Below, one piece after another: positions 52,197 through 63,672 of a DNA stretch of 64,000 bases (positions are counted from its first letter, which is position 1; the number at the start of each line of letters is the position of its first letter). The DNA lies in the sequence record NC_054917.1, one strand, 5' to 3'. The notes under the pieces were generated by a model, which ran no database searches, was not told the origin of the DNA, and saw only the letters and a list, made by a program, of their open reading frames with translations. The stretch is from Escherichia phage vB_EcoM_G50. The translations under genes and the position numbers were made by a program.

Positions 52197-52204
52197 TATA
52201 AATA
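52197..52204 (+). promoter_or_regulatory. Late promoter motif TATAAATA (gene 34)
   Basis: exact motif 35 bp upstream of ATG. Confidence 0.55.
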
Positions 52205-52238: not shown

Positions 52239-55200
52239 ATGGCCGAGATTAAAAGAAAGTTCAGAGCAGAAGATGGTCTGGACGCAGGTGGCGATAAAAT
52301 AATCAACGTAGCTTTAGCTGATCGTACCGTAGGAACTGACGGTGTTAACGTTGATTACCTAATTCAAGAAAACACAGTTCAACAATACGATCCAACTCGT
52401 GGATATTTAAAAGATTTTGTAATCATTTATGATAACCGCTTTTGGGCTGCTATAAATGATATTCCAAAACCGGCAGGAACTTTTAATAGTGGACGCTGGA
52501 GAGCATTGCGTACTGATGCTAACTGGATCACAGTCTCATCTGGTTCATATCAATTAAAATCCGGTGAAGCTATTTCGGTTAACACTGCAGCTGGTAATGA
52601 TATTACATTTACTTTACCATCTTCCCCAATTGACGGTGATACTATCGTTCTCCAAGATATTGGAGGAAAACCTGGAGTTAACCAAGTTTTAATTGTAGCT
52701 CCAGTGCAAAGTATTGTAAACTTCAGAGGTGAACAAGTACGATCAGTACTAATGACTCATCCAAAATCACAGTTGGTTTTAATTTTTAGTAATCGTCTGT
52801 GGCAAATGTATGTTGCTGATTATAGTAGAGAAGCTGTAATTGCGACACCAGCGAATACTTATCAAGCGCAATCCAATGATTTTATCGTACGTAGATTTAC
52901 TTCTGCCGCACCGATTAATATTAAACTTCCGAGATTTGCTAATCACGGTGATATTATTAATTTCGTCGATTTGGACAAATTAAATCCACTTTATCATACA
53001 ATTGTCACAACATACGATGAAACTACTTCAGTACAAGAAGATGGAACTCATTCTATTGAAGGCCGTACATCAATTGACGGTTTCTTGATGTATGATGATA
53101 ATGAAAAATTGTGGAGATTGTTTGACGGGGACAGTAAAGCACGTTTACGTATTATAACGACTAATTCAAACATTCGTCCAAATGAAGAAGTTATGGTATT
53201 TGGTGCGAATAATGGAATAACTCAAACAATTGAACTCCAGCTTCCAACTAATATTTCTGTTGGTGATACTGTTAAAATTTCCATGAATTACATGAGAAAA
53301 GGACAAACAGTTAAAATCAAAGCTGCCGGTGAAGATAAAATTGCTTCTTCAGTTCAATTGCTGCAATTCCCAAAACGTTCAGAATATCCGCCTGAAGCTG
53401 AATGGGTGACTGTTCAAGAATTAGTTTTTAACGGTGAAACTAATTATGTTCCAGTTTTACAACTTGCTTATATAGAAGATTCTGACGGAAAATACTGGGT
53501 AGTACAGCAAAACGTTCCAACCGTAGAAAGAGTTGATTCTTTAAATGATTCTACTAGAGCGAGATTAGGCGTAATTGCTTTAGCTACACAAGCTCAAGCT
53601 AACGTCGATTTAGAAAATTCTCCGCAAAAAGAATTAGCAATTACACCAGAAACATTAGCTAACCGTACTGCTACAGAAACTCGCAGAGGTATCGCAAGAA
53701 TAGCAACAACTGCTCAAGTGAATCAGAACACCACATTCTCTTTTGCTGACGATATTATCATCACTCCTAAAAAGCTGAATGAAAGAACTGCTACAGAAAC
53801 TCGCAGAGGCGTTGCTGAAATTGCTACGCAACAGGAAACTAATGCAGGTACTGATGATACTACAATCATCACTCCTAAAAAGCTTCAAGCTCGACAAGGT
53901 TCTGAATCATTATCAGGTATTGTAACCTTTGTATCTACTACAGGAGCTACTCCAGCTTCTAGTCGTGAATTAAATGGTACAAACGTTTATAATAAAAACA
54001 CTAATAATTTAGTCGTTTCGCCTAAAGCTTTGGATCAGTATAAAGCTACTCCAACGCAACAAGGTGCAGTAATTTTAGCAGTTGAAAGTGAAGTAATTGC
54101 TGGACAAAGCCAAGAAGGATGGGCAAATGCGGTTGTAACGCCAGAAACGTTACACAAAAAGACATCGACTGATGGAAGAATTGGTTTAATTGAAATTGCT
54201 ACGCAAAGTGAAGTTAATACAGGAACTGATTATACTCGTGCAGTCACTCCTAAAACTTTAAATGACCGTATAGCAACTGAAAGTTTAAGTGGTATAGCTG
54301 AAATTGCTACGCAAGTTGAATTCGACGCAGGCGTCGACGATACTCGTATCTCTACACCATTAAAAATTAAAACCAGATTTAATAGTACTGATCGTACTTC
54401 TGTTGTTGCTCTATCTGGATTAGTTGAATCAGGAACTCTCTGGGACCATTATACCCTTAATATTCTTGAAGCAAATGAGACACAGCGTGGTACACTTCGT
54501 GTAGCTACACAAGTTGAAGCTGCTGCAGGAACATTAGATAATGTTTTAATAACTCCTAAAAAGCTTTTAGGTACTAAATCTACCGAATCGCAGGAAGGTG
54601 TTATTAAAGTTGCAACTCAGTCTGAAACTGTAACTGGAACGTCAGCAAATACTGCTGTATCTCCAAAAAATTTAAAATGGATTGTGCAGAGTGAACCTAC
54701 TTGGGCAGCTACTACTGCGATAAGAGGTTTTGTTAAAACTTCATCCGGTTCAATTACATTCGTTGGTAATGATACAGTTGGTTCTACACAGAGCTTAGAG
54801 CTATACGAGAAAAATAGCTATGCAGTATCACCGTACGAATTAAACCGTGTATTAGCAAATTATTTGCCGTTAAAAGCAAAAGCCGCTGACGCGAATTTAT
54901 TAGATGGTCTAGATTCATCCCAGTTCATTCGTAGGGATATTGCACAGACGGTTAATGGTTCACTAACCTTAACCCAACAAACGAATCTAAGTGCCCCTCT
55001 TGTATCATCTAGTACTGCTACGTTTGGTGGATCAGTTTCGGCAAATAGTACATTAACTATTTCTAATACTGGAACGGCAACTCGTCTGATTTTTGAGAAA
55101 GGACCTCAAACTGGAACTAACCCAGTACAGACGATGACTATCAGAGTTTGGGGAAATCAGTTTGGTGGCGGTTCAGATACAACACGTTCTACTGTATTTG

Positions 55201-56108
55201 AAGTTGGTGATGAAACGTCTAATCACTTTTATTCTCAACGTAATAAAGCTGGGAATATAACGTTTAGTATCAATGGTACTGTAATGCCGATAAATGTTAA
55301 CGCTTCAGGTTCTTTGAATGCGAATGGCGTTGCAACATTTGGTAGTTCAGTTACTGCTAATGGTGAATTCATCAGCAAGTCTGCAAATGCTTTTAGAGCA
55401 ATAAGTGGTAATTATGGATTCTTTATTCGCAATGATGCTGCTAACACCTATTTTATGCTCACTGCATCGGGTGATCAGACTGGCGGATTTAATGGATTAC
55501 GTCCTTTAGCTATTAATAATGCATCTGGTCAAGTAACGATTGGTGAAAGCTTAATCATTGCCAAAGGTGCTACTATAAATTCAGGTGGTTTAACTGTTAA
55601 CTCGAGAATTCGTTCTCAGGGCACTAAAACATCTGACTTATATACCCGTGCGCCAACATCTGATACCGTAGGATTCTGGTCAATTGACATTAATGATTCA
55701 GCTACTTATAATCAGTTCCCAGGTTATTTTAAAATGGTTGAAAAAACTAATGAAGTGACTGGACTTCCATACTTAGAACGTGGTGAAGAAGTTAAATCTC
55801 CTGGTACATTGACTCAGTTTGGTAACACACTTGATTCGCTTTACCAAGATTGGATTACTTATCCAACGACTCCAGAAGCGCGTACCACTCGCTGGACACG
55901 CACATGGCAGAAAACCAAAAACTCCTGGTCAAGTTTTGTTCAGGTATTTGATGGAGGTAACCCTCCTCAACCGTCTGATATCGGTGCTTTACCATCTGAT
56001 AATGCTACAATGGGGAATCTTACTATTCGTGATTTCTTACGAATTGGTAATGTTCGCATTATTCCTGACCCAGTGAATAAAACGGTTAAATTTGAATGGG
56101 TTGAATAA
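52239..56108 (+). CDS. 34: Long tail fiber proximal subunit gp34
   Basis: 1289 aa, T4 length; internal TPKKL/TATETRRG repeats; TATAAATA upstream. Confidence 0.95.
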   Translation: MAEIKRKFRAEDGLDAGGDKIINVALADRTVGTDGVNVDYLIQENTVQQYDPTRGYLKDFVIIYDNRFWAAINDIPKPAGTFNSGRWRALRTDANWITVSSGSYQLKSGEAISVNTAAGNDITFTLPSSPIDGDTIVLQDIGGKPGVNQVLIVAPVQSIVNFRGEQVRSVLMTHPKSQLVLIFSNRLWQMYVADYSREAVIATPANTYQAQSNDFIVRRFTSAAPINIKLPRFANHGDIINFVDLDKLNPLYHTIVTTYDETTSVQEDGTHSIEGRTSIDGFLMYDDNEKLWRLFDGDSKARLRIITTNSNIRPNEEVMVFGANNGITQTIELQLPTNISVGDTVKISMNYMRKGQTVKIKAAGEDKIASSVQLLQFPKRSEYPPEAEWVTVQELVFNGETNYVPVLQLAYIEDSDGKYWVVQQNVPTVERVDSLNDSTRARLGVIALATQAQANVDLENSPQKELAITPETLANRTATETRRGIARIATTAQVNQNTTFSFADDIIITPKKLNERTATETRRGVAEIATQQETNAGTDDTTIITPKKLQARQGSESLSGIVTFVSTTGATPASSRELNGTNVYNKNTNNLVVSPKALDQYKATPTQQGAVILAVESEVIAGQSQEGWANAVVTPETLHKKTSTDGRIGLIEIATQSEVNTGTDYTRAVTPKTLNDRIATESLSGIAEIATQVEFDAGVDDTRISTPLKIKTRFNSTDRTSVVALSGLVESGTLWDHYTLNILEANETQRGTLRVATQVEAAAGTLDNVLITPKKLLGTKSTESQEGVIKVATQSETVTGTSANTAVSPKNLKWIVQSEPTWAATTAIRGFVKTSSGSITFVGNDTVGSTQSLELYEKNSYAVSPYELNRVLANYLPLKAKAADANLLDGLDSSQFIRRDIAQTVNGSLTLTQQTNLSAPLVSSSTATFGGSVSANSTLTISNTGTATRLIFEKGPQTGTNPVQTMTIRVWGNQFGGGSDTTRSTVFEVGDETSNHFYSQRNKAGNITFSINGTVMPINVNASGSLNANGVATFGSSVTANGEFISKSANAFRAISGNYGFFIRNDAANTYFMLTASGDQTGGFNGLRPLAINNASGQVTIGESLIIAKGATINSGGLTVNSRIRSQGTKTSDLYTRAPTSDTVGFWSIDINDSATYNQFPGYFKMVEKTNEVTGLPYLERGEEVKSPGTLTQFGNTLDSLYQDWITYPTTPEARTTRWTRTWQKTKNSWSSFVQVFDGGNPPQPSDIGALPSDNATMGNLTIRDFLRIGNVRIIPDPVNKTVKFEWVE
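53667..53809. repeat. Intragenic direct repeats in gene 34
   Basis: 23-bp perfect repeat actgctacagaaactcgcagagg at 53667 and 53787, plus repeated atcatcactcctaaaaagct; encode repeated fibre motifs. Confidence 0.8.
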
Positions 56109-56116
56109 GAGGTATT

Positions 56117-57232
56117 ATGGAAAAATTTATGGCAGAGTTTGGACAAGGATACGTCCAAACGCCATTTTTATCGGAAAGTAATTCAGTAAGATATAAAATA
56201 AGTATAGCGGGTTCTTGCCCGCTTTCTACTGCAGGACCATACGTTAAATTTCAGGATAATCCTGTCGGAAATCAAACATTTAACGCAGGTCTTCATTTAA
56301 GAGTTTTTGACCCTTCCACAGGAGCATTAGTTGATAGTAAGTCATATGCTTTTTCGACTTCAAATGATACTACATCAGCTGCTTTTGTTAGTTTCATGAA
56401 TTCTTTGGCGAATAATAGACTTGTTGCTATATTAACTAGCGGAAAGGTTAATTTTCCTCCTGAAGTAGTATCTTGGCTAAGAGCCGCAGGAACGTCTGCT
56501 TTTCCATCTGATTCTATATTGTCAAGATTCGACGTATCATATGCTGCTTTTTACACTTCTTCTAAAAGAGCTATTGCATTAGAGCATGTTAAATTAAGTA
56601 ATAGAAAAAGCACAGATGATTATCAAACTATTTTAGATGTTGTATTTGACAGTTTAGAAGATGTTGGAGCTACCGGCTTTCCAAGAAGAACATATGAAAG
56701 CATCGAGCAATTTATGTCAGCAGTCGGTGGAACTAATAACGAAATTGCGCGATTGCCAACTTCAGCTGCCATAAGTAAATTATCTGACTATAATTTAATC
56801 CCTGGTGATGTTCTTTATCTTAAAGCACAGTTATATGCTGATGCCGATTTACTTGCGCTTGGAACCACAAATATATCTATCCGTTTTTATAACGCATCAA
56901 ATGGATATATTTCTTCAACACAAGCTGAGTTTACCGGACAAGCTGGGTCTTGGGAATTAAAGGAAGATTATGTAGTTGTTCCAGAAAACGCTGTGGGATT
57001 TACGATATATGCACAAAGAACTGCACAAGCTGGTCAAGGTGGCATGAGAAATTTAAGCTTTTCTGAAGTGTCAAGAAATGGAGGTATTTCGAAACCTGCT
57101 GAATTTGGCGTCAACGGCATTCGCGTTAATTATATCTGTGAATCTGCTTCACCTCCGGATATAATGGTACTTCCTACACAAGCATCGTCTAAAACTGGTA
57201 AAGTGTTTGGGCAAGAATTTAGAGAAGTATAA
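56117..57232 (+). CDS. 35: Long tail fiber hinge connector gp35
   Basis: 371 aa; position. Confidence 0.9.
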   Translation: MEKFMAEFGQGYVQTPFLSESNSVRYKISIAGSCPLSTAGPYVKFQDNPVGNQTFNAGLHLRVFDPSTGALVDSKSYAFSTSNDTTSAAFVSFMNSLANNRLVAILTSGKVNFPPEVVSWLRAAGTSAFPSDSILSRFDVSYAAFYTSSKRAIALEHVKLSNRKSTDDYQTILDVVFDSLEDVGATGFPRRTYESIEQFMSAVGGTNNEIARLPTSAAISKLSDYNLIPGDVLYLKAQLYADADLLALGTTNISIRFYNASNGYISSTQAEFTGQAGSWELKEDYVVVPENAVGFTIYAQRTAQAGQGGMRNLSFSEVSRNGGISKPAEFGVNGIRVNYICESASPPDIMVLPTQASSKTGKVFGQEFREV

Positions 57233-57263: not shown

Positions 57264-57271
57264 TATAAATA
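57264..57271 (+). promoter_or_regulatory. Late promoter motif TATAAATA (gene 36)
   Basis: exact motif after gene 35 terminator. Confidence 0.55.
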
Positions 57272-57294: not shown

Positions 57295-57960
57295 ATGGCT
57301 GATTTAAAAGTAGGTTCAACAACCGGAGGCTCTGTCATTTGGCATCAAGGAAATTTTCCATTGAATCCAGCCGGTGACGATGTACTCTATAAATCATTTA
57401 AAATATATTCAGAATACAATAAACCACAAGCTGCTGATAACGATTTCGTTTCTAAAGCTAATGGTGGTACTTATGCGTCAAAGGTAACATTTAACAGTGG
57501 CGTGCAAATACCATATGCTATAAACAACACAAACCAAAGCGGTATTTATCCTGGCAATGGTGATGCTGCTACTTTTGATACAGCAAATATTGATATTGTT
57601 TCATGGTATGGCATTGGTTTTAAATCATCGCAAGGATCTGCAGGTAGAACTGTTGTTGTTAACACTCGTACTGGTGATATCAGCACTAAGGGTGGTATTT
57701 ATGCAATCGGACCCGTCCGTTCTAACGTTACCGCTCCAGTTGCAGCAAATGATCTTACTAGAAAAGACTATGTTGATGGAGCAATAAATACTGTTACGGC
57801 AAATGCGAACTCTAGAGTGTTACGATCTGGTGACACTATGACGGGAAACTTAACCGCACCAAACTTTTTCTCGCAGAATCCTGCATCTCAACCTTCACAT
57901 GTTCCACGATTTGACCAAATCGTAATTAAGGATTCTGTTCAAGATTTCGGCTATTATTAA
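57295..57960 (+). CDS. 36: Long tail fiber distal connector gp36
   Basis: 221 aa, T4 length; late promoter upstream. Confidence 0.9.
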   Translation: MADLKVGSTTGGSVIWHQGNFPLNPAGDDVLYKSFKIYSEYNKPQAADNDFVSKANGGTYASKVTFNSGVQIPYAINNTNQSGIYPGNGDAATFDTANIDIVSWYGIGFKSSQGSAGRTVVVNTRTGDISTKGGIYAIGPVRSNVTAPVAANDLTRKDYVDGAINTVTANANSRVLRSGDTMTGNLTAPNFFSQNPASQPSHVPRFDQIVIKDSVQDFGYY

Positions 57961-57968
57961 GAGGACTT

Positions 57969-60900
57969 ATGGCTACTTTAAAACAAATACAATTTAAAAG
58001 AAGCAAAACCGCAGGTGCACGTCCTGCTGCTTCAGTATTAGCCGAAGGTGAATTGGCTATAAACTTAAAAGATAGAACAATTTTTACTAAAGATGATTCA
58101 GGAAATATCATTGACTTAAGCATTTCCGCTGGCGGTAATATCAGTGGTAATATCACTCAAACTGGTGATTATACACAGACTGGAAAATTTAATTTAATTG
58201 GTCCGCAAATTGTAGCAAGCGGTGGATATATTGAGTTTAATTATCGTACTACTGGAAGTGGGGTTTGGTCCGGTCAACACACTGCAAAAGCTCCAATTTT
58301 TGTAGATTTAAGCTCAGCTACTTCCACATCTGAATATAATCCTATAATTAAACAGCGCTTTAAAGACGGAACTTTTTCATTAGGTACTTTAGTTTCTGAA
58401 GGTTCGTTGAAGATTCATTATATTGATGAAACTGGTCAATCTAAATATTGGACATTTGCGCGCTCAGGTAATTTTCAAGTTGATTCTGGTAATTTATTAG
58501 TATCTGGTGGGTATTTAGTCGCTCAGAGTAATATTGAAACAAGAACAGGTTCTTTGATTGGTCCATCTGTTGTAACTAAAAATATTTCATTTGATACGAA
58601 AGCGTTTGGACAATACGATTCGCAGTCATTAGTTCAATATGTTTATCCTGGAACAGGCGAAGAAAATGGTATAAACTATCTTCGTAAAGTTCGAGCTAAA
58701 TCAGGTGGAACTATTTACCATGAAATTGCTTCTGCGCAGACTGGTAAGAATGATGAAATTTCTTGGTGGACCGGAAACTCGCTTACCACTAAATTAATGG
58801 GTCTTCGTAATGATGGCGCAATGGTATTACGTCGTTCACTTGCTATTGGCACAATTACCGCTGATGAAAATACTAACAACTATGGTTCTCCTACTCCAAT
58901 GGGAGAAAGATATATTGCTTTGGGTGATGCTGCAACCGGTTTAAAATATATTAAGCAAGGTGTTTATGATTTAGTAGGTAATTGGAATTCTGTTGCTTCT
59001 ATTACTCCTGATAGTTTCCGTAGTACTCGTAAAGCATTATTTGGACGTTCAGAAGATCAAGGCGGAACCTGGACAATGCCTGGAACGAACGCTGCTCTCT
59101 TGTCTGTTCAAACCCAGGCAGATGTGAATAACGCAGGCGATGGTCAAACCCACATTGGATATAATTCTGGCGGTAAATTTTCCCATTATTTCCGCGGTAA
59201 AGGCCAAACCAACATTAATACACAGGAAGGTATGGAAATTAACCCTGGTATTTTGAAATTGGTAACTGGCTCTAATAACGTACAGTTTTATGCTAATGGA
59301 ACAGTATCTTCAATACAAAGAATTAAATTTGATAACGGATTAGTTCTTACTGGTGCTAGACCTGACGGTATTCAACTTGACGCTCCTACATCAGCAGATG
59401 GCACTAAAACTATACTGTGGGCTGGTGGTACTCGCGCAGGTCAGAATAAAAGTTATGTATCTATTAAAGCGTGGGGTAATTCATTTAACGCATCTGGCGA
59501 TCGTGCTCGTGAAACAGTTTTTGAAGTGGCTGACGGGCAGGGATATTATTTTTATGCACAACGCACTACTCCTGCATCAGGTCAAACAGTAGGTCCGGTT
59601 AACTTTAAATTTAACGGAACTGTCGAAACAGGCCATATCATAGGCCTTGGAAATATAAGTGCCTCCGGTACAGGTTCTTTTGGTGGCAATGTTACCATGT
59701 CTAACGGTTTGTTTGTCCAAGGTGGTTCTTCTATTACTGGACAAGTTAAAATCGGCGGAACATCAGATGCATTAAGAATTTGGAATGCTGAATATGGTGC
59801 TATTTTCCGTCGTTCTGAAGATAAGTTTTATATTATTCCAACCCCACAGAATGCGGGTGAATCAGGCGGCATTTCTAATTTACGTCCGTTCTATATTGCA
59901 TTAAGTAATGGTAAAGTTTCCATGGATCATGATGTAGATATCGGCGGCGGTAGATTTAAAGTAGAAGTGGCTGGAACTACTTCTAATCAACGTATAACAC
60001 TAAATATGGCATCAGATGCTATTAGAATAAATGCTCCAACGCAAGAGTCTTCTAACTTCATCCAAGGACGTAAAGCAGATGTCCCAAAATGGTATTTGGG
60101 TATTGGCGATGGCGGAAACGTCGTTCGTATGCATAGTTACACTTACTCCCATGGTATTGCATTAAACTCTGATACTGTCGATATTACTAAGCCCCTTAAA
60201 ATTAATAATATTCGAATTGGTACAGATGGCAACATCACAGGTGGTACTGATAATTTTGCCAACTTAAATACAACGTTAAATCGTAAAGTTAATTCTGGAT
60301 TTATTACTTATGGAGCAACTGCTGGATGGTATAAGTTTGCAACAGTAACAATGCCACAATCCACTTCTACAGTCTTCTTTAAAATAGCCGGTGGTTCTGG
60401 ATTTAATAGCGGATTATTCACACAGTGCAATATTGCTGAAATTGTTTTACGTACTAGTAATGAAAGACCTGCTGACTTAAATGCTGTATTATACACAAGA
60501 ACAATTGCAGCTGCATTTAAAAATATTGCAGTTAATAACGTCTCTGGAGATACATATGACATTTATGTTTATGCCGGAACATATTGCAATCAATTAACTT
60601 GTGAATGGTCATGTACCGAAAATGCTGCTGTTAGCGTTATTGGTATTAACTCATCGACCCAATCACCTGTGGATGCTCTTCCAGATACAGCAGTTGATGG
60701 GCAAGTTGCTAATGTTCTTAATAACTTGGTTGATCGCGGCAAAGGTAAGCGTTATGAAGCCGATTCTGAAATAGCTATTAATAGCCAAACTGGTATTCGT
60801 ATTAGAAGCAACAGCGATAAAACTGGTTCTGTTGCTACAATGCTACGAAATGATGGCGGTAGTTTTTATATTCTGTTTACAGATAAAAATGCCACCGATG

Positions 60901-61724
60901 GCGAAGCGACTGTTAACGGTGAATGGAATAGTAAGCGTCCTTTCGCTATTAACTTAACAACCGGTGAAGTGATGATGAATAATGGCATAGCTGTTCGCAG
61001 CGCTGCTTTATTCTATAATAGCATAAACGTCAAAGATAATGGTTCTATTAACTTTGATAAATCAGGTGCTAACCCGAGAAATATGAGAATATTTCATGCT
61101 GGCGATGCTTCTCGCGGTAACCGTATTGAAATTGCCGATGAAACTAACTATATTGCTTACTTTGAAAAAGCTCCAGGTGGAGCTAACCGCTTTGTAGTAA
61201 ATAATGCTACTGTAGCTGGTGTTAACCAAATGAATTCATTTGGTATTAATATCAATAACGCACTTGGTGGAAATAGTATAGCATTTGGTGATAGCGATAC
61301 TGGTATTAAGCAAAATGGCGATGGATTATTAGACATATATGCGAACAGCGTACAAGTATTCCGTTTCCAAAACGGTGATTTGTACTCATACAAAAATATA
61401 AATGCTCCAAACGTTTATATTCGTTCTGATATTCGTTTAAAATCCAACTTTAAACCTATCGAAAATGCACTTGATAAAGTTGAAAAACTTAACGGTGTCA
61501 TTTACGATAAAGCTGAATACATTGGTGGAGAGGCAATTGAAACTGAAGCGGGTATTGTGGCTCAAACGCTACAAGACGTTTTACCAGAAGCTGTCCGTGA
61601 AACAGAAGACAGTAAGGGTAATAAAATACTCACTGTTTCTTCTCAAGCCCAGATTGCTCTTCTGGTTGAAGCTGTGAAAACACTTTCTGCTCGTGTAAAA
61701 GAACTTGAATCTAAACTTATGTAA
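57969..61724 (+). CDS. 37: Long tail fiber distal subunit gp37, T2-type with C-terminal intramolecular chaperone domain
   Basis: 1251 aa (T4 is 1026 as recalled); conserved N-terminus; C-terminal SDIRLKSN...LDKVEKLNGVIY resembles the autoproteolytic S74-type chaperone domain. Confidence 0.9.
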   Translation: MATLKQIQFKRSKTAGARPAASVLAEGELAINLKDRTIFTKDDSGNIIDLSISAGGNISGNITQTGDYTQTGKFNLIGPQIVASGGYIEFNYRTTGSGVWSGQHTAKAPIFVDLSSATSTSEYNPIIKQRFKDGTFSLGTLVSEGSLKIHYIDETGQSKYWTFARSGNFQVDSGNLLVSGGYLVAQSNIETRTGSLIGPSVVTKNISFDTKAFGQYDSQSLVQYVYPGTGEENGINYLRKVRAKSGGTIYHEIASAQTGKNDEISWWTGNSLTTKLMGLRNDGAMVLRRSLAIGTITADENTNNYGSPTPMGERYIALGDAATGLKYIKQGVYDLVGNWNSVASITPDSFRSTRKALFGRSEDQGGTWTMPGTNAALLSVQTQADVNNAGDGQTHIGYNSGGKFSHYFRGKGQTNINTQEGMEINPGILKLVTGSNNVQFYANGTVSSIQRIKFDNGLVLTGARPDGIQLDAPTSADGTKTILWAGGTRAGQNKSYVSIKAWGNSFNASGDRARETVFEVADGQGYYFYAQRTTPASGQTVGPVNFKFNGTVETGHIIGLGNISASGTGSFGGNVTMSNGLFVQGGSSITGQVKIGGTSDALRIWNAEYGAIFRRSEDKFYIIPTPQNAGESGGISNLRPFYIALSNGKVSMDHDVDIGGGRFKVEVAGTTSNQRITLNMASDAIRINAPTQESSNFIQGRKADVPKWYLGIGDGGNVVRMHSYTYSHGIALNSDTVDITKPLKINNIRIGTDGNITGGTDNFANLNTTLNRKVNSGFITYGATAGWYKFATVTMPQSTSTVFFKIAGGSGFNSGLFTQCNIAEIVLRTSNERPADLNAVLYTRTIAAAFKNIAVNNVSGDTYDIYVYAGTYCNQLTCEWSCTENAAVSVIGINSSTQSPVDALPDTAVDGQVANVLNNLVDRGKGKRYEADSEIAINSQTGIRIRSNSDKTGSVATMLRNDGGSFYILFTDKNATDGEATVNGEWNSKRPFAINLTTGEVMMNNGIAVRSAALFYNSINVKDNGSINFDKSGANPRNMRIFHAGDASRGNRIEIADETNYIAYFEKAPGGANRFVVNNATVAGVNQMNSFGININNALGGNSIAFGDSDTGIKQNGDGLLDIYANSVQVFRFQNGDLYSYKNINAPNVYIRSDIRLKSNFKPIENALDKVEKLNGVIYDKAEYIGGEAIETEAGIVAQTLQDVLPEAVRETEDSKGNKILTVSSQAQIALLVEAVKTLSARVKELESKLM

Positions 61725-61725
61725 A

Positions 61726-61753
61726 AGAGGGCTTCGGCCCTCTAAGGATTTTT
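61726..61753 (+). terminator. Hairpin/attenuator between genes 37 and 38 (UUCG tetraloop)
   Basis: AGAGGGC-TTCG-GCCCTCT then short T-run overlapping gene 38 RBS. Confidence 0.4.
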
Positions 61754-61754
61754 A

Positions 61755-62546
61755 ATGGCAATTGTAGGTGTTCCTGGCTGGATTGGCGAATCTGCCGTGA
61801 ATGAAACTGGACAACGTTGGATGGATGCTGCAATGAAAGCAGTTCGCGTTTCAGTTCCTGGTTGGATGAGCTCAATGGCTGGACAATCTAAAGAAGTATA
61901 TTACAGTATTGGTGCTAGCAATTCTTATAATAAAGACACGCTAATAAATTGGATAAAAGCCCAAGGAAGCACTCCTGTTGTTATTACAATTACAGGCAAT
62001 ATCGTTTCTTCATCGACAGGTCAACCATGCTTAGATTTTCCTAGCTCATTAACTAATGCATACGTTACCTTAAACATTAATAGTGGGGTTCATGTATTAG
62101 GTCGGGGAGGAAATGGCGGAAGTAACTCTGCTGGTAGAGCAGGCGGAACTGCAATAAATAACGGAATTGGAACTCGTTTAAGAATAAACAATAATGGTAT
62201 TATTGGCGGTGGCGGCGGTGGCGGCGCAGGCGCTAGATACAATCCTTTCCCTCAAATGGATATGATATTTGGCGGTGGCGGAGGTCGTCCATTTGGTGCA
62301 GCCGGTGCAGCTGGAGGCGGTGCCGCGGCAGCATCGGCTGGTACAATTTCTGCTCCTGGTAAAGGCACTGTTTCTGGGGTTCACCACGGAGGAGATGGTG
62401 GAGATTTGGGAGCTGCTGGCAAATCTTCATATATTCAAGGCGGTACTGGAGGAACTATTTACTCGGGTGGCGCTGCTGGTAAAGCTGTTACTGGAAACGC
62501 TCCAACTTGGACTAAAGTTGGTACAATATATGGTGCAAGGGTATAA
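61755..62546 (+). CDS. 38: Receptor-recognising adhesin gp38 (T2-type, glycine-rich motifs)
   Basis: 263 aa; poly-Gly blocks (GGGGGGAGAR, GGGGGRPFGAAGAAGGG) separating variable segments. Confidence 0.85.
   Translation: MAIVGVPGWIGESAVNETGQRWMDAAMKAVRVSVPGWMSSMAGQSKEVYYSIGASNSYNKDTLINWIKAQGSTPVVITITGNIVSSSTGQPCLDFPSSLTNAYVTLNINSGVHVLGRGGNGGSNSAGRAGGTAINNGIGTRLRINNNGIIGGGGGGGAGARYNPFPQMDMIFGGGGGRPFGAAGAAGGGAAAASAGTISAPGKGTVSGVHHGGDGGDLGAAGKSSYIQGGTGGTIYSGGAAGKAVTGNAPTWTKVGTIYGARV
62200..62345. repeat. GGY-codon simple repeats encoding glycine-rich motifs of gp38
   Basis: runs of ggcggtggcggcggtggcggc and related. Confidence 0.8.
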
Positions 62547-62577
62547 TTTTGAATAAATATCCTTAAAAGGAGGGTCT

Positions 62578-63234
62578 ATGGCAGCACCTAGAATATCATT
62601 TTCGCCCTCTGATATTCTGTTGGGTGTTCTAGATCGCTTGTTCAAAGATAACGCTACCGGGAAAGTTCTTGCTTCCCGGGTAGCTGTCGTAATTCTTTTG
62701 TTTATAATGGCGATTGTTTGGTATAGGGGAGATAGTTTCTTTGAGTACTATAAGCAATCAAAGTATGAAACATACAGTGAAATTATTGAAAAGGAAAGAA
62801 ATGCACGCTTTGAATCTGTCGCCCTGGAACAACTCCAGATAGTTCACATATCATCTGAGGCAGACTTTAGTGCGGTGTATTCTTTCCGCCCTAAAAACTT
62901 AAACTATTTTGTTGATATTATAGCATATGAAGGAAAATTACCTTCAACAATAAGTGAAAAATCACTTGGAGGATATCCTGTTGATAAAACTATGGATGAA
63001 TACACAGTTCATTTAAATGGACGTCATTATTATTCCAACTCAAAATTTGCTTTTTTACCAACTAAAAAGCCTACTCCCGAAATAAATTACATGTACAGTT
63101 GTCCATATTTTAATTTGGATAACATCTATGCTGGAACAATAACCATGTACTGGTATAGAAATGATCATATAAGTAATGACCGCCTTGAATCAATATGTTC
63201 TCAGGCGGCCAGAATATTAGGAAGGGCTAAATAA
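62578..63234 (+). CDS. t: Holin T
   Basis: 218 aa; single N-proximal TM (VAVVILLFIMAIVWY) and large periplasmic domain. Confidence 0.93.
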   Translation: MAAPRISFSPSDILLGVLDRLFKDNATGKVLASRVAVVILLFIMAIVWYRGDSFFEYYKQSKYETYSEIIEKERNARFESVALEQLQIVHISSEADFSAVYSFRPKNLNYFVDIIAYEGKLPSTISEKSLGGYPVDKTMDEYTVHLNGRHYYSNSKFAFLPTKKPTPEINYMYSCPYFNLDNIYAGTITMYWYRNDHISNDRLESICSQAARILGRAK

Positions 63235-63507
63235 TTATTTGTTTGTATACATCTCTAGATATCGATATACACCCTCAAAACCCTCGTTGAATTCGTCGAT
63301 GAGGGTTTTCTTATCTTCTTGAGTTAATTCAGAAACAATTTTACGGAATGAATTCTGATTTAACTTTCTACCTTCATGCGTTACTCCAATCTCATTCAGA
63401 AATGCAATAAAATTAGCACGATTCTCAACAATATCTTCTCTGGAAAATTTAATCAAAATAGACGCAACAGTAATAATTTCACGAACTGTATCAATGTTTT
63501 TATTCAT
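63235..63507 (-). CDS. asiA: Anti-sigma70 protein AsiA
   Basis: 90 aa; recognised T4 AsiA sequence. Confidence 0.93.
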   Translation of the reverse strand: MNKNIDTVREIITVASILIKFSREDIVENRANFIAFLNEIGVTHEGRKLNQNSFRKIVSELTQEDKKTLIDEFNEGFEGVYRYLEMYTNK

Positions 63508-63519
63508 TAACTATACCAC

Positions 63520-63672
63520 TCAATTAGTTGACTTTATTATAATATCATCAGACACTTGATTTGTAAACTGGTCTGTGTTATTTTCTTCAAAAATTTTTTC
63601 TACGAATTCTTTGAACGACTCACGTTCCTGAGCTACATTATGCTCGATTACCTTTTCAAGATTATGACTCAT
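63520..63672 (-). CDS. Small ORF between arn and asiA
   Basis: 50-aa ORF found by manual translation; ATGA overlap with arn stop; contains the asiA early promoter; not verified. Confidence 0.3.
   Translation of the reverse strand: MSHNLEKVIEHNVAQERESFKEFVEKIFEENNTDQFTNQVSDDIIIKSTN
63537..63568 (-). promoter_or_regulatory. Early promoter for asiA
   Basis: minus-strand GTTTACA, 17 nt, TGATATTAT. Confidence 0.5.

Follow-up and report, generated by a model that had tools for sequence, protein, structure and literature searches.

In the 64,000-nt stretch of DNA that was analysed (the window; Escherichia phage vB_EcoM_G50, NC_054917.1), g38 lies directly downstream of g37, which ends at 61724, and upstream of the holin gene t (62578-63234), in the gene order g36-g37-g38-t-asiA that is also found in RB18-type relatives (Table 1). 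The g38 product has the sequence of the vB_EcoM_G50 gp38 record (QBO65119.1/YP_010070077.1), and in a phage collection without the G50 genome the best DNA match for 61000-63300 was RB18, at 96.9%. The late promoter motif ahead of gene 36 is the closest such motif upstream of g37-g38, with no further exact copy from 57271 to the end of g38. The intergenic hairpin between g37 and g38 is 100% conserved in six relatives and carries a terminator annotation in phage NR1; in its 71-nt context it folds no better than shuffled sequences (z = -0.74), even though its stem is fully paired and conserved. An Rfam scan of 61000-63600 for a hidden RNA element returned one sub-threshold chance match only. Minus-strand ORFs of 50-72 aa within g38 (62090-62645) were deemed, from their position, to be artefacts of the Gly/Ala-rich coding strand.

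Table 1. Features of the g37-g38 region, in window coordinates. GRM, glycine-rich motif; HVS, variable segment.
Feature	Position (nt)	Strand	Residues (aa)	Basis or context
T4-type late promoter motif TATAAATA	57264-57271	+		31 nt upstream of gene 36
Gene 37, long tail fibre distal subunit, 1251 aa	57969-61724	+		ORF list; PHROG; Pfam
Mature gp37 C-terminal tip, putative gp38 docking site	61282-61424	+	~1105-1152	Alignment to 6f45_A
Intramolecular chaperone/self-cleaving domain of gp37 (Peptidase_S74, ICA), 99 aa	61425-61721	+	1153-1251	PF13884; SDIRLK motif
Intergenic hairpin AGAGGGCUUCGGCCCUCU, 7-bp stem, UUCG loop	61726-61743	+		Between g37 stop and g38 ribosome-binding site
g38 ribosome-binding site AAGGA	61745-61749	+
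Gene 38, T2-type tail-fibre tip adhesin, 263 aa	61755-62546	+		Pfam; PHROG; S16 gp38; AF2/Foldseek
gp38 N-terminal attachment domain, three short helices	61755-61880	+	1-42	Pfam Gp38_N residues 1-42
gp38 specificity domain, GRM1 to GRM5 with HVS1-HVS4	62100-62495	+		Alignments A1/A2 and T6 numbering (Trojet 2011)
gp38 GRM1; GRM2; GRM3; GRM4; GRM5			116-122; 151-157; 173-181; 212-222; 238-247
gp38 HVS1; HVS2; HVS3; HVS4			123-150; 158-172; 182-211; 223-237

An earlier, sequence-only reading of this DNA had given gp37 as longer than its T4 counterpart (1026 aa) and had likened its end to an S74-type chaperone; the ORF and the T4 length, which was checked, agree with the former, and a full-model Pfam match, a dyad with the endoNF spacing and matches to the S16 tip and the MyRF ICA bear out the latter. 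gp37 matched PHROG 1699 ('long tail fiber protein distal subunit') at E 0 and the Pfam families gp37_trimer, Gp34_trimer and Peptidase_S74. Its BLASTP similarity to T4 gp37 (49% identity) is confined to residues 1-823; homology to the T4 protein covers the N-terminal ~820 aa, and the C-terminal part is T2/K3-like. The tip can be aligned with chain 6f45_A, the gp37 tip of S16 (E 3.6e-13), and from about residue 1105 to the C-terminus, the cleavage domain included (the last ~147 residues), the protein is identical to that of T2, with six nucleotide differences across 61282-61786.

gp37 ends in an S74/ICA-type domain. Peptidase_S74 (PF13884) matched residues 1153-1210 over profile positions 1-58 of 58 (E 2.7e-15, 56.8 bits, cut-off 22), and the domain also matched the MyRF ICA structure 7dc3 (E 0.0013). 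The SDIRLKSN motif begins at residue 1153 (nt 61425); position 61380, where the earlier reading had started the module, is codon 1138. The putative catalytic dyad, S1153/K1158, has a Ser-x4-Lys arrangement (S1153-D-I-R-L-K1158), is invariant across five aligned gp37 sequences and has the same spacing as S911/K916 of endoNF and S587/K592 of MyRF, in which both residues are indispensable and the cut falls N-terminal to the Ser (PMC8326128). Consistent with processing, PMC3157838 states that the C-terminus of T2/T6 gp37 is processed, with Drexler 1986 as the source. By analogy with these relatives and reports, the C-terminal folding domain of G50 gp37 probably cuts itself off, which would leave R1152 as the predicted final residue. 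The last ~27 residues of gp37 (SQAQIALLVEAVKTLSARVKELESKLM), judged by eye, have the look of an amphipathic helix.

Pfam PF05268 (GP38; E 2.2e-69, 234 bits, cut-off 25) and PF21721 (Gp38_N; E 7e-18, 64.7 bits, cut-off 25) jointly span residues 1-263 of gp38; as judged by profile scores, the Pfam support for the gp37 S74 and gp38 domains is far beyond chance. gp38 further matched PHROG 2056 ('tail fiber protein; host specificity'; E 8e-101), the solved S16 gp38 6f45_D (E 1.4e-46) and the PP01 gp38 structure (E 1e-29). Its AlphaFold (AF2) model (pLDDT 92.6, pTM 0.86) matched 6f45_D with TM 0.78/0.82 and 9v85 with TM 0.70-0.82 in Foldseek, and at E < 1 nothing in the PDB beyond the S16 and PP01 gp38 structures was retrieved. 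In the model, helices span residues 10-18, 23-29 and 38-41, and directly before each stands a conserved Trp (W9, W22 and W37, all invariant in alignment A1); S16 gp38 attaches via three Trp (PMC6851490). Taken together, the sequence and model matches support the view, already put forward in the earlier reading, that gp38 is a T2-type adhesin rather than a T4-type chaperone.

Gly accounts for 23% of gp38 and for 33% of its C-terminal part. The poly-Gly blocks noted earlier in the 263-aa protein are runs at residues 151-157, 173-177 and 187-189 (nt 62205-62225, 62271-62285 and 62313-62321), encoded mainly by GGC/GGT, with GGA twice. The direct repeat TTGGCGGTGGCGG occurs in two in-frame copies, 66 nt apart, that flank HVS2, and GC content is 0.57 over the specificity domain versus ~0.35 in the flanks. 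Alignment set the boundaries of GRM1-5 and HVS1-4, an assignment that the earlier reading had left to such a comparison, and alignments and per-segment identities placed the sites at which gp38 alleles differ in the segments between glycine-rich motifs, where it had expected them: across alleles the GRMs are 86-100% conserved, whereas identity in HVS2-4 falls to 0-50%.

Because G50 gp38 is 96% identical to gp38 of the BASEL phage Bas43 (TadeuszReichstein), whose receptor is Tsx by RB-TnSeq in BW25113 and BL21 (2026 preprint, Table S1; the receptor table of this preprint was used for the BASEL relatives), Tsx is the most likely receptor of this allele, as judged from relatives and the literature. 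Consistent with this, AV109 gp38 falls in the same 90% cluster as G50 gp38, and the AV109 paper groups AV109 with the Tsx-dependent AV114/AV115 (ECOR4). For RB18, the best DNA match, no receptor assignment was found in the literature searched. Eight differences separate G50 gp38 from that of Bas43, six of them in or beside HVS2-4 (H163N, Y211H, N214D, K228Q, V235I and H236Y), and these six leave some doubt on the Tsx call. The I235/Y236 pair in HVS4 is absent from all other gp38 alleles compared.

In the diversity sampled, exchange at this locus shows up chiefly at the specificity-domain flanks and in the conserved gp37 tip rather than between single loops at the Gly-codon runs. Among 127 gp38 representatives, which were picked by similarity to the query and are not an unbiased sample, HVS2-HVS4 are inherited as blocks, and the visible mosaic junctions lie at the specificity-domain flanks and in the conserved gp37 tip. 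In the Tsx phages Bas39, JK38 and NpS, the 5' and 3' ends of g38 are near-identical to those of G50 and the HVS cassette is different. On one metagenome contig, a g38 with the same nucleotide sequence (0/792 differences) follows a 1292-aa gp37 that differs strongly; the junction lies at about gp37 residues 1085-1138. We relied on protein clusters and retrieved loci, since tblastn of gp38 on the phage collection recovers too few C-terminal matches: its low-complexity filter hides the glycine-rich half of the protein.

With high confidence, we regard the observed domain identities, fold, dyad motif, allele relationships and mosaic junctions as best explained by the distal end of the long-tail-fibre operon of a Tequatrovirus, with a self-cleaving gp37 and gp38 as the tip adhesin; nothing that we found speaks against this architecture. 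gp37 would be produced as a 1251-aa precursor whose last 99 residues, an S74-type intramolecular chaperone, would aid fibre folding of the three chains and then cleave themselves off before Ser1153 via the Ser1153/Lys1158 dyad. By analogy with relatives and the literature, the exposed trimeric tip would be capped by one copy of gp38 (3:1), docked through W9, W22 and W37 of its three-helix N-terminal domain, and the C-terminal glycine-rich motifs would pack as a polyglycine-II sandwich. The loops of this sandwich (HVS1-4) would touch an outer-membrane protein, most likely the nucleoside channel Tsx; the Bas43 assignment and the S16 and PP01 structures point to such a position of gp38 at the fibre tip of the virion. 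Shifts in host range would come chiefly from recombination events in which the entire HVS cassette, or a unit of gp37 tip, chaperone domain and gp38, is replaced, and for which the conserved flanking DNA could supply the homology.

Two alternatives would alter this architecture. Were gp38 a T4-type assembly chaperone outside the virion, gp37 itself would bind the receptor, and several relatives do carry the annotation 'distal long tail fiber assembly catalyst'; that label was, however, carried over from T4, and the T4 RefSeq note itself calls the 'gp38' of the T2 subfamily the unrelated adhesin. The alignment with T4 gp38, on which the earlier reading had staked its T2-type assignment, gave only E = 49 in BLASTP, which refutes a T4-type identity. 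No match to the Pfam tail-fibre-assembly family was found in gp38 at E ≤ 0.01, the sequence and fold matches to the crystallised S16 and PP01 tip adhesins are strong, and gp37 is without the T4-type C-terminal needle domain, since its similarity to the T4 protein ends at about residue 823. A T4-type chaperone thus retains virtually no likelihood. It is also very unlikely that the mature fibre keeps the S74-like domain uncleaved, whether for its structure or for the docking of gp38. Cleavage of G50 gp37 is a prediction, and the homologous stretch is present in the sequence of the solved S16 construct; yet both residues of the Ser/Lys dyad are in place, the Pfam profile matches over its full length, and T2 gp37, which has the identical sequence here, reportedly undergoes C-terminal processing. 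Moreover, gp38 caps the base of gp37 in the S16 complex, so the residues downstream would have to be absent.

A self-cleaved gp37 capped by gp38 would still be compatible with another receptor, or with other routes of loop exchange. Through its substitutions relative to Bas43 the allele might use another porin or only particular Tsx variants, and receptor switches by one gp38 residue are on record: the single HVS3 substitution Q206L in RB51 gp38 is reported to switch OmpF to OmpW, and PST and T6 gp38 differ by a few residues (Trojet 2011). Against this, two independent phage sets with the same HVS set are reported to be Tsx-dependent (Bas43 in K-12/BL21 and the AV114/115 group in ECOR4), the substitutions are conservative, several are common to RB18 and SA20RB, and T6-type Tsx binders likewise have a Tyr where G50 has Y236; we consider a departure from ordinary Tsx use unlikely. 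A fuller version, in which the RB18/G50-type HVS set is a second Tsx solution, sequence-distinct from the T6 set, and the six substitutions may shift specificity to another porin or particular Tsx variants, strikes us as quite unlikely. The earlier reading had seen recombination sites for loop swapping in the GGY codon repeats. They remain plausible crossover points, an idea of Tetart 1998, but the inheritance of HVS2-HVS4 as sets and the position of the junctions leave chiefly loop-by-loop shuffling, with crossovers inside these runs, as a minority possibility. Short exact matches (14-20 nt) join divergent alleles at GRM3 and GRM5, the direct repeat flanks HVS2, rare natural chimeras (P0005 and P0007) combine a G50-type HVS3 with other HVS2 and HVS4, and such exchanges were reported by Tetart 1998, as cited elsewhere. 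On the other side, the 127 representatives gave 0 four-combination sets for HVS2/3, HVS3/4 and HVS2/4, whereas the pairing of N-terminal type with HVS set gave 20 and the two reassort freely; internal exchange occurred in 0/14 selected RB5 x RB32/33 recombinants (Trojet 2011), and the GRM DNA has no run of at least 14 nt in common with the T2 and Bas38 alleles, which are more distant. In a related, likewise quite unlikely reading, silent change or micro-conversion would be locally concentrated in the Gly/Ala codon runs. Seven RB18-type genes did show an enrichment of silent polymorphism in these runs (p = 0.0014); because the Bas39-type group did not repeat it (p = 0.44), we do not claim a silent-site hot spot.

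The locus is an ordinary, well-studied T2/T6-like receptor-recognition end of a long tail fibre, and nothing in its interpretation goes beyond textbooks and published work (Drexler 1986, Riede 1987, Tetart 1998, Trojet 2011, Dunne 2018). It opens no new question, because the architecture, processing, fold, GRM/HVS logic and the use of gp38 phylogeny to predict receptors have all been published. Its practical value lies in a probable receptor, Tsx, which indicates the resistance mutants to expect and informs the choice of phage cocktails, and in a further example of an exchangeable module of gp37 tip, chaperone domain and gp38 for host-range engineering.

Among known systems, the closest are the RB18-type phages (RB18, SA20RB, slur07, TB37, Kha5h, KIT06, AV109 and TadeuszReichstein/Bas43), whose gp38 is 95-98% identical with point differences only. 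T2 (MH751506) has the identical gp37 tip and chaperone domain at the protein level, the same architecture and processing literature, and nearly identical DNA in the first ~20 codons of g38; it differs in a 1341-aa gp37 with a longer shaft, unrelated immediately upstream of the tip, and in a distinct gp38 HVS set (0-16% identity in HVS2-4), and its receptors are FadL/OmpF. The T6-type gp38 of the Tsx binders T6, Bas39 and JK38 probably has the same receptor as that of G50. The Bas39/JK38 proteins are ~97% identical to it over the N-terminal 115 aa and 96% over the C-terminal 26 aa, whereas T6-type identity is 47% in HVS2, 53% in HVS3 and 27% in HVS4, so the G50 set would constitute a second, distinct Tsx-associated HVS solution. 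The S16 gp37(3)-gp38 complex (6F45) shares the three-helix Trp attachment domain, the beta-helix, the polyglycine sandwich, the GGGGGGG run found at residues 151-157 and the SD-R-K start of the chaperone domain, but its gp38 is 41% identical and has other HVS loops, another host and another receptor. The C-terminal chaperone of endoNF and the MyRF ICA share the Pfam family, the Ser-x4-Lys dyad and the C-terminal position behind a trimeric fibre; the G50 domain sits instead on a T-even fibre, not a tailspike or a transcription factor, and after release its cut end would be capped by a separate adhesin. T4 gp38 shares gene name and position only: its sequence is unrelated, the virion does not contain it, and in T4 the receptor-binding tip is part of gp37 itself.

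The final 12 kb of the window constitute the T-even long-tail-fibre operon, in which every gene could be named by Pfam and PHROGs. The interval 61380–62546 spans the last 114 codons of g37, which encodes the distal subunit of the long tail fibre, a 30-nt spacer and the whole of g38.

Genes of the long-tail-fibre operon
Gene	Coordinates	Strand	Product length	Basis
gp34	52239–56108		1289 aa	Pfam/PHROGs
gp35	56117–57232			Pfam/PHROGs
gp36	57295–57960			Pfam/PHROGs
gp37	57969–61724	+	1251 aa	Pfam/PHROGs
gp38	61755–62546	+	263 aa	Pfam/PHROGs
holin t	62578–63234			Pfam/PHROGs
asiA	63235–63507	minus		Pfam/PHROGs

The sequence-only reading took gp38 for a T2-type tip adhesin, and homology and modelling bear this out. 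The Pfam families GP38 (E = 2.2e-69) and Gp38_N (E = 7e-18) both match the protein, as do the crystallised adhesins of S16 (6f45_D, residues 8–261, E = 1.4e-46) and PP01 (9v85, E = 1e-29). A confident AlphaFold2 model built with 77 homologues as input (pLDDT 92.6, pTM 0.86) matched only S16 and PP01 gp38 in the PDB (TM 0.70–0.82), the next entry having E > 2. S16 gp38 docks on the gp37 trimer via three tryptophans (PMC6851490); their counterparts, W9, W22 and W37, are invariant in our gp38 alignment and stand at the starts of the three N-terminal helices of the model. The glycine blocks noticed earlier were located at residues 151–157, 173–177 and 187–189, encoded mostly by GGC and GGT. A T4-type, chaperone-only gp38 is ruled out, T4 gp38 being unrelated (BLASTP E = 49). 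GenBank records of relatives, including comparison loci L004 and L005, often call gp38 a 'distal long tail fiber assembly catalyst' or 'tail assembly protein'; because the function named is that of the unrelated T4 protein, such labelling is a propagated misannotation. Several ORFs of 50–95 aa overlap g38 on the minus strand and in the +2 frame (62090–62645), and look like composition by-products of a GC-rich (up to 0.57) Gly/Ala-coding stretch.

For gp37, the lengths first given (1251 aa, against 1026 aa in T4) are correct, and the resemblance of its end to an S74-type domain holds: residues 1153–1210, beginning with the SDIRLKSN motif (nt 61425), align with the full length of Pfam Peptidase_S74 ('chaperone of endosialidase'; E = 2.7e-15). 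The C-terminal 160 aa match the tip construct of S16 gp37 (6f45_A, E = 3.6e-13) and the intramolecular chaperone auto-cleavage domain of MyRF (7dc3, E = 0.0013). The catalytic dyad of such domains is a serine with a lysine five residues on (endoNF S911/K916, MyRF S587/K592); both are indispensable in endoNF and MyRF, which are cut just N-terminal to the serine (PMC8326128). The putative gp37 dyad, S1153/K1158, is invariant in five aligned gp37 sequences, and the predicted cleavage site, R1152|S1153, would yield a mature gp37 of residues 1–1152 and a released 99-residue chaperone. The last ~147 residues are identical to T2 gp37 (6 nucleotide mismatches across 61282–61786), and Trojet 2011 (PMC3157838), citing Drexler 1986, states that C-terminal proteolytic processing of T2 and T6 gp37 precedes gp38 capping. 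Given the retained dyad, this identity and the reported processing, there are strong grounds to infer that gp37 cleaves itself.

The T4 late-promoter motif TATAAATA, found 17 times in the window against 8.7 expected by chance, lies 42 nt upstream of the gp34 start (52197–52204) and 31 nt upstream of the gp36 start (57264–57271). Its absence from g36 to the end of g38 suggests that g36, g37 and g38 form a single late transcript. Past the g37 stop codon and ahead of AAGGA, the Shine–Dalgarno sequence of g38, sits a hairpin, AGAGGGCUUCGGCCCUCU (61726–61743), with a perfect 7-bp stem and a C(UUCG)G tetraloop, which is 100% conserved in RB18, SA20RB, Bas39, JK38, NpS and T2 and carries a terminator annotation in phage NR1. 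Because the T-run does not begin until 6 nt past the stem, the hairpin may serve for mRNA stabilisation or attenuation and not act as a full terminator. Elsewhere in the operon, residues 58–123 of the hinge protein gp35 match Pfam ILEI (PF15711, interleukin-like EMT inducer; E = 4.9e-8, over the curated cut-off), an unexpected domain name for a phage fibre hinge.

Sliding DNA comparison revealed a mosaic. Bas39, JK38 and NpS are 89–100% identical to the window over the first ~230 nt and last ~50 nt of g38 and only 44–80% across 62190–62470, and the divergence of JK38 and SA20RB is confined to 61280–61620. T2 is ~99% identical from 61282 to ~61820, that is, the gp37 tip, chaperone domain, spacer and first ~20 g38 codons, with both flanks unrelated or strongly diverged. 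A metagenome contig (Logan SRR30937726, 592–5292) carries a g38 with 0/792 nt differences behind a very different 1292-aa gp37, which is 10–70% identical to that of the window in many blocks and identical again from ~residue 1138, pointing to recent transfer of a tip-plus-adhesin module between fibre shafts. From this junction and the mosaic, the exchanged unit is either the gp37 tip, chaperone domain and gp38 together, or a cassette of hypervariable segments (HVS).

Within gp38, HVS1–4 alternate with glycine-rich motifs (GRM1–5), and the sequence-only reading proposed the GGY runs (62200–62345) as recombination sites for loop swapping, a published hypothesis (Tetart 1998). Among 127 gp38 cluster representatives, a sample selected for similarity to the query, N-terminal types combine freely with HVS sets (20 four-combination sets), with no such set for HVS2/HVS3, HVS3/HVS4 or HVS2/HVS4; the only exceptions are rare chimeras, among them two representatives that combine a window-type HVS3 with an HVS2 and HVS4 of other types. 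The 14 selected recombinants of Trojet 2011 (PMC3157838) fit this picture, since they lack exchange between GRM1 and GRM5. Crossover at GGY runs is possible but not the main pattern; in this similarity-picked sample, exchange seems block-wise rather than loop-wise. Common DNA runs of 14–20 nt with Bas39-type alleles occur at GRM3 and GRM5, and none of at least 14 nt is shared with T2 or Bas38. An in-frame direct repeat, TTGGCGGTGGCGG(C/A)GGT, flanks HVS2 (62203–62219 and 62269–62285, 66 nt apart); recombination or slippage between its copies would delete exactly GRM2 and HVS2, and T6 gp38 with deletions of this type is non-functional (PMC3157838). In seven equal-length RB18-type g38 genes (the window and L004, L005 and L008–L011), silent polymorphism is concentrated in the Gly/Ala codon runs (62205–62345, codons 151–197), with 19/25 Gly codons polymorphic inside runs versus 11/34 outside (p = 0.0014); the group of Bas39, JK38, NpS and NR1 showed no such enrichment (13/27 versus 12/32, p = 0.44).

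The window gp38 is identical to that of Escherichia phage vB_EcoM_G50 and falls in a 90% cluster of 81 that includes slur07, Kha5h, KIT06, AV109, vB_Eco_Geo and TadeuszReichstein (Bas43); in a phage collection without the G50 genome, RB18 is the best DNA match to 61000–63300 (96.9%). Genome-wide screens in BW25113 and BL21 named Tsx the primary receptor of Bas43, whose gp38 is 96% identical, and Kdo its LPS sugar (Table S1, bioRxiv 10.64898/2026.04.02.716166), and AV109 gp38 is close kin to that of AV114 and AV115, which require Tsx in ECOR4 (PMC10844046). On these grounds, the receptor is very probably Tsx. Some doubt stems from positions of the specificity domain that differ from Bas43: G128R (HVS1), H163N (HVS2), Y211H and N214D (HVS3/GRM4 edge) and K228Q, V235I and H236Y (HVS4); an eighth, S261A, lies C-terminal of GRM5. 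One substitution within an HVS can be enough to change the receptor: Q206L is reported to switch RB51 from OmpF to OmpW.

To known systems this analysis adds a high-confidence Tsx call, block-wise exchange and a precise position for the predicted cut, R1152|S1153. The tip module is real, was correctly interpreted from the start and is ordinary: T2-type adhesin, GRM/HVS design, gp37 processing, polyglycine sandwich and the use of gp38 phylogeny to predict receptors are all published (PMC3157838, PMC6851490, PMC12032242, PMC12892980, bioRxiv 10.64898/2026.04.02.716166), and the same gp38 protein is already deposited in GenBank. The HVS set of this gp38 is clearly distinct from that of the T6-type Tsx binders Bas39 and JK38, with identities of 47% in HVS2, 53% in HVS3 and 27% in HVS4.
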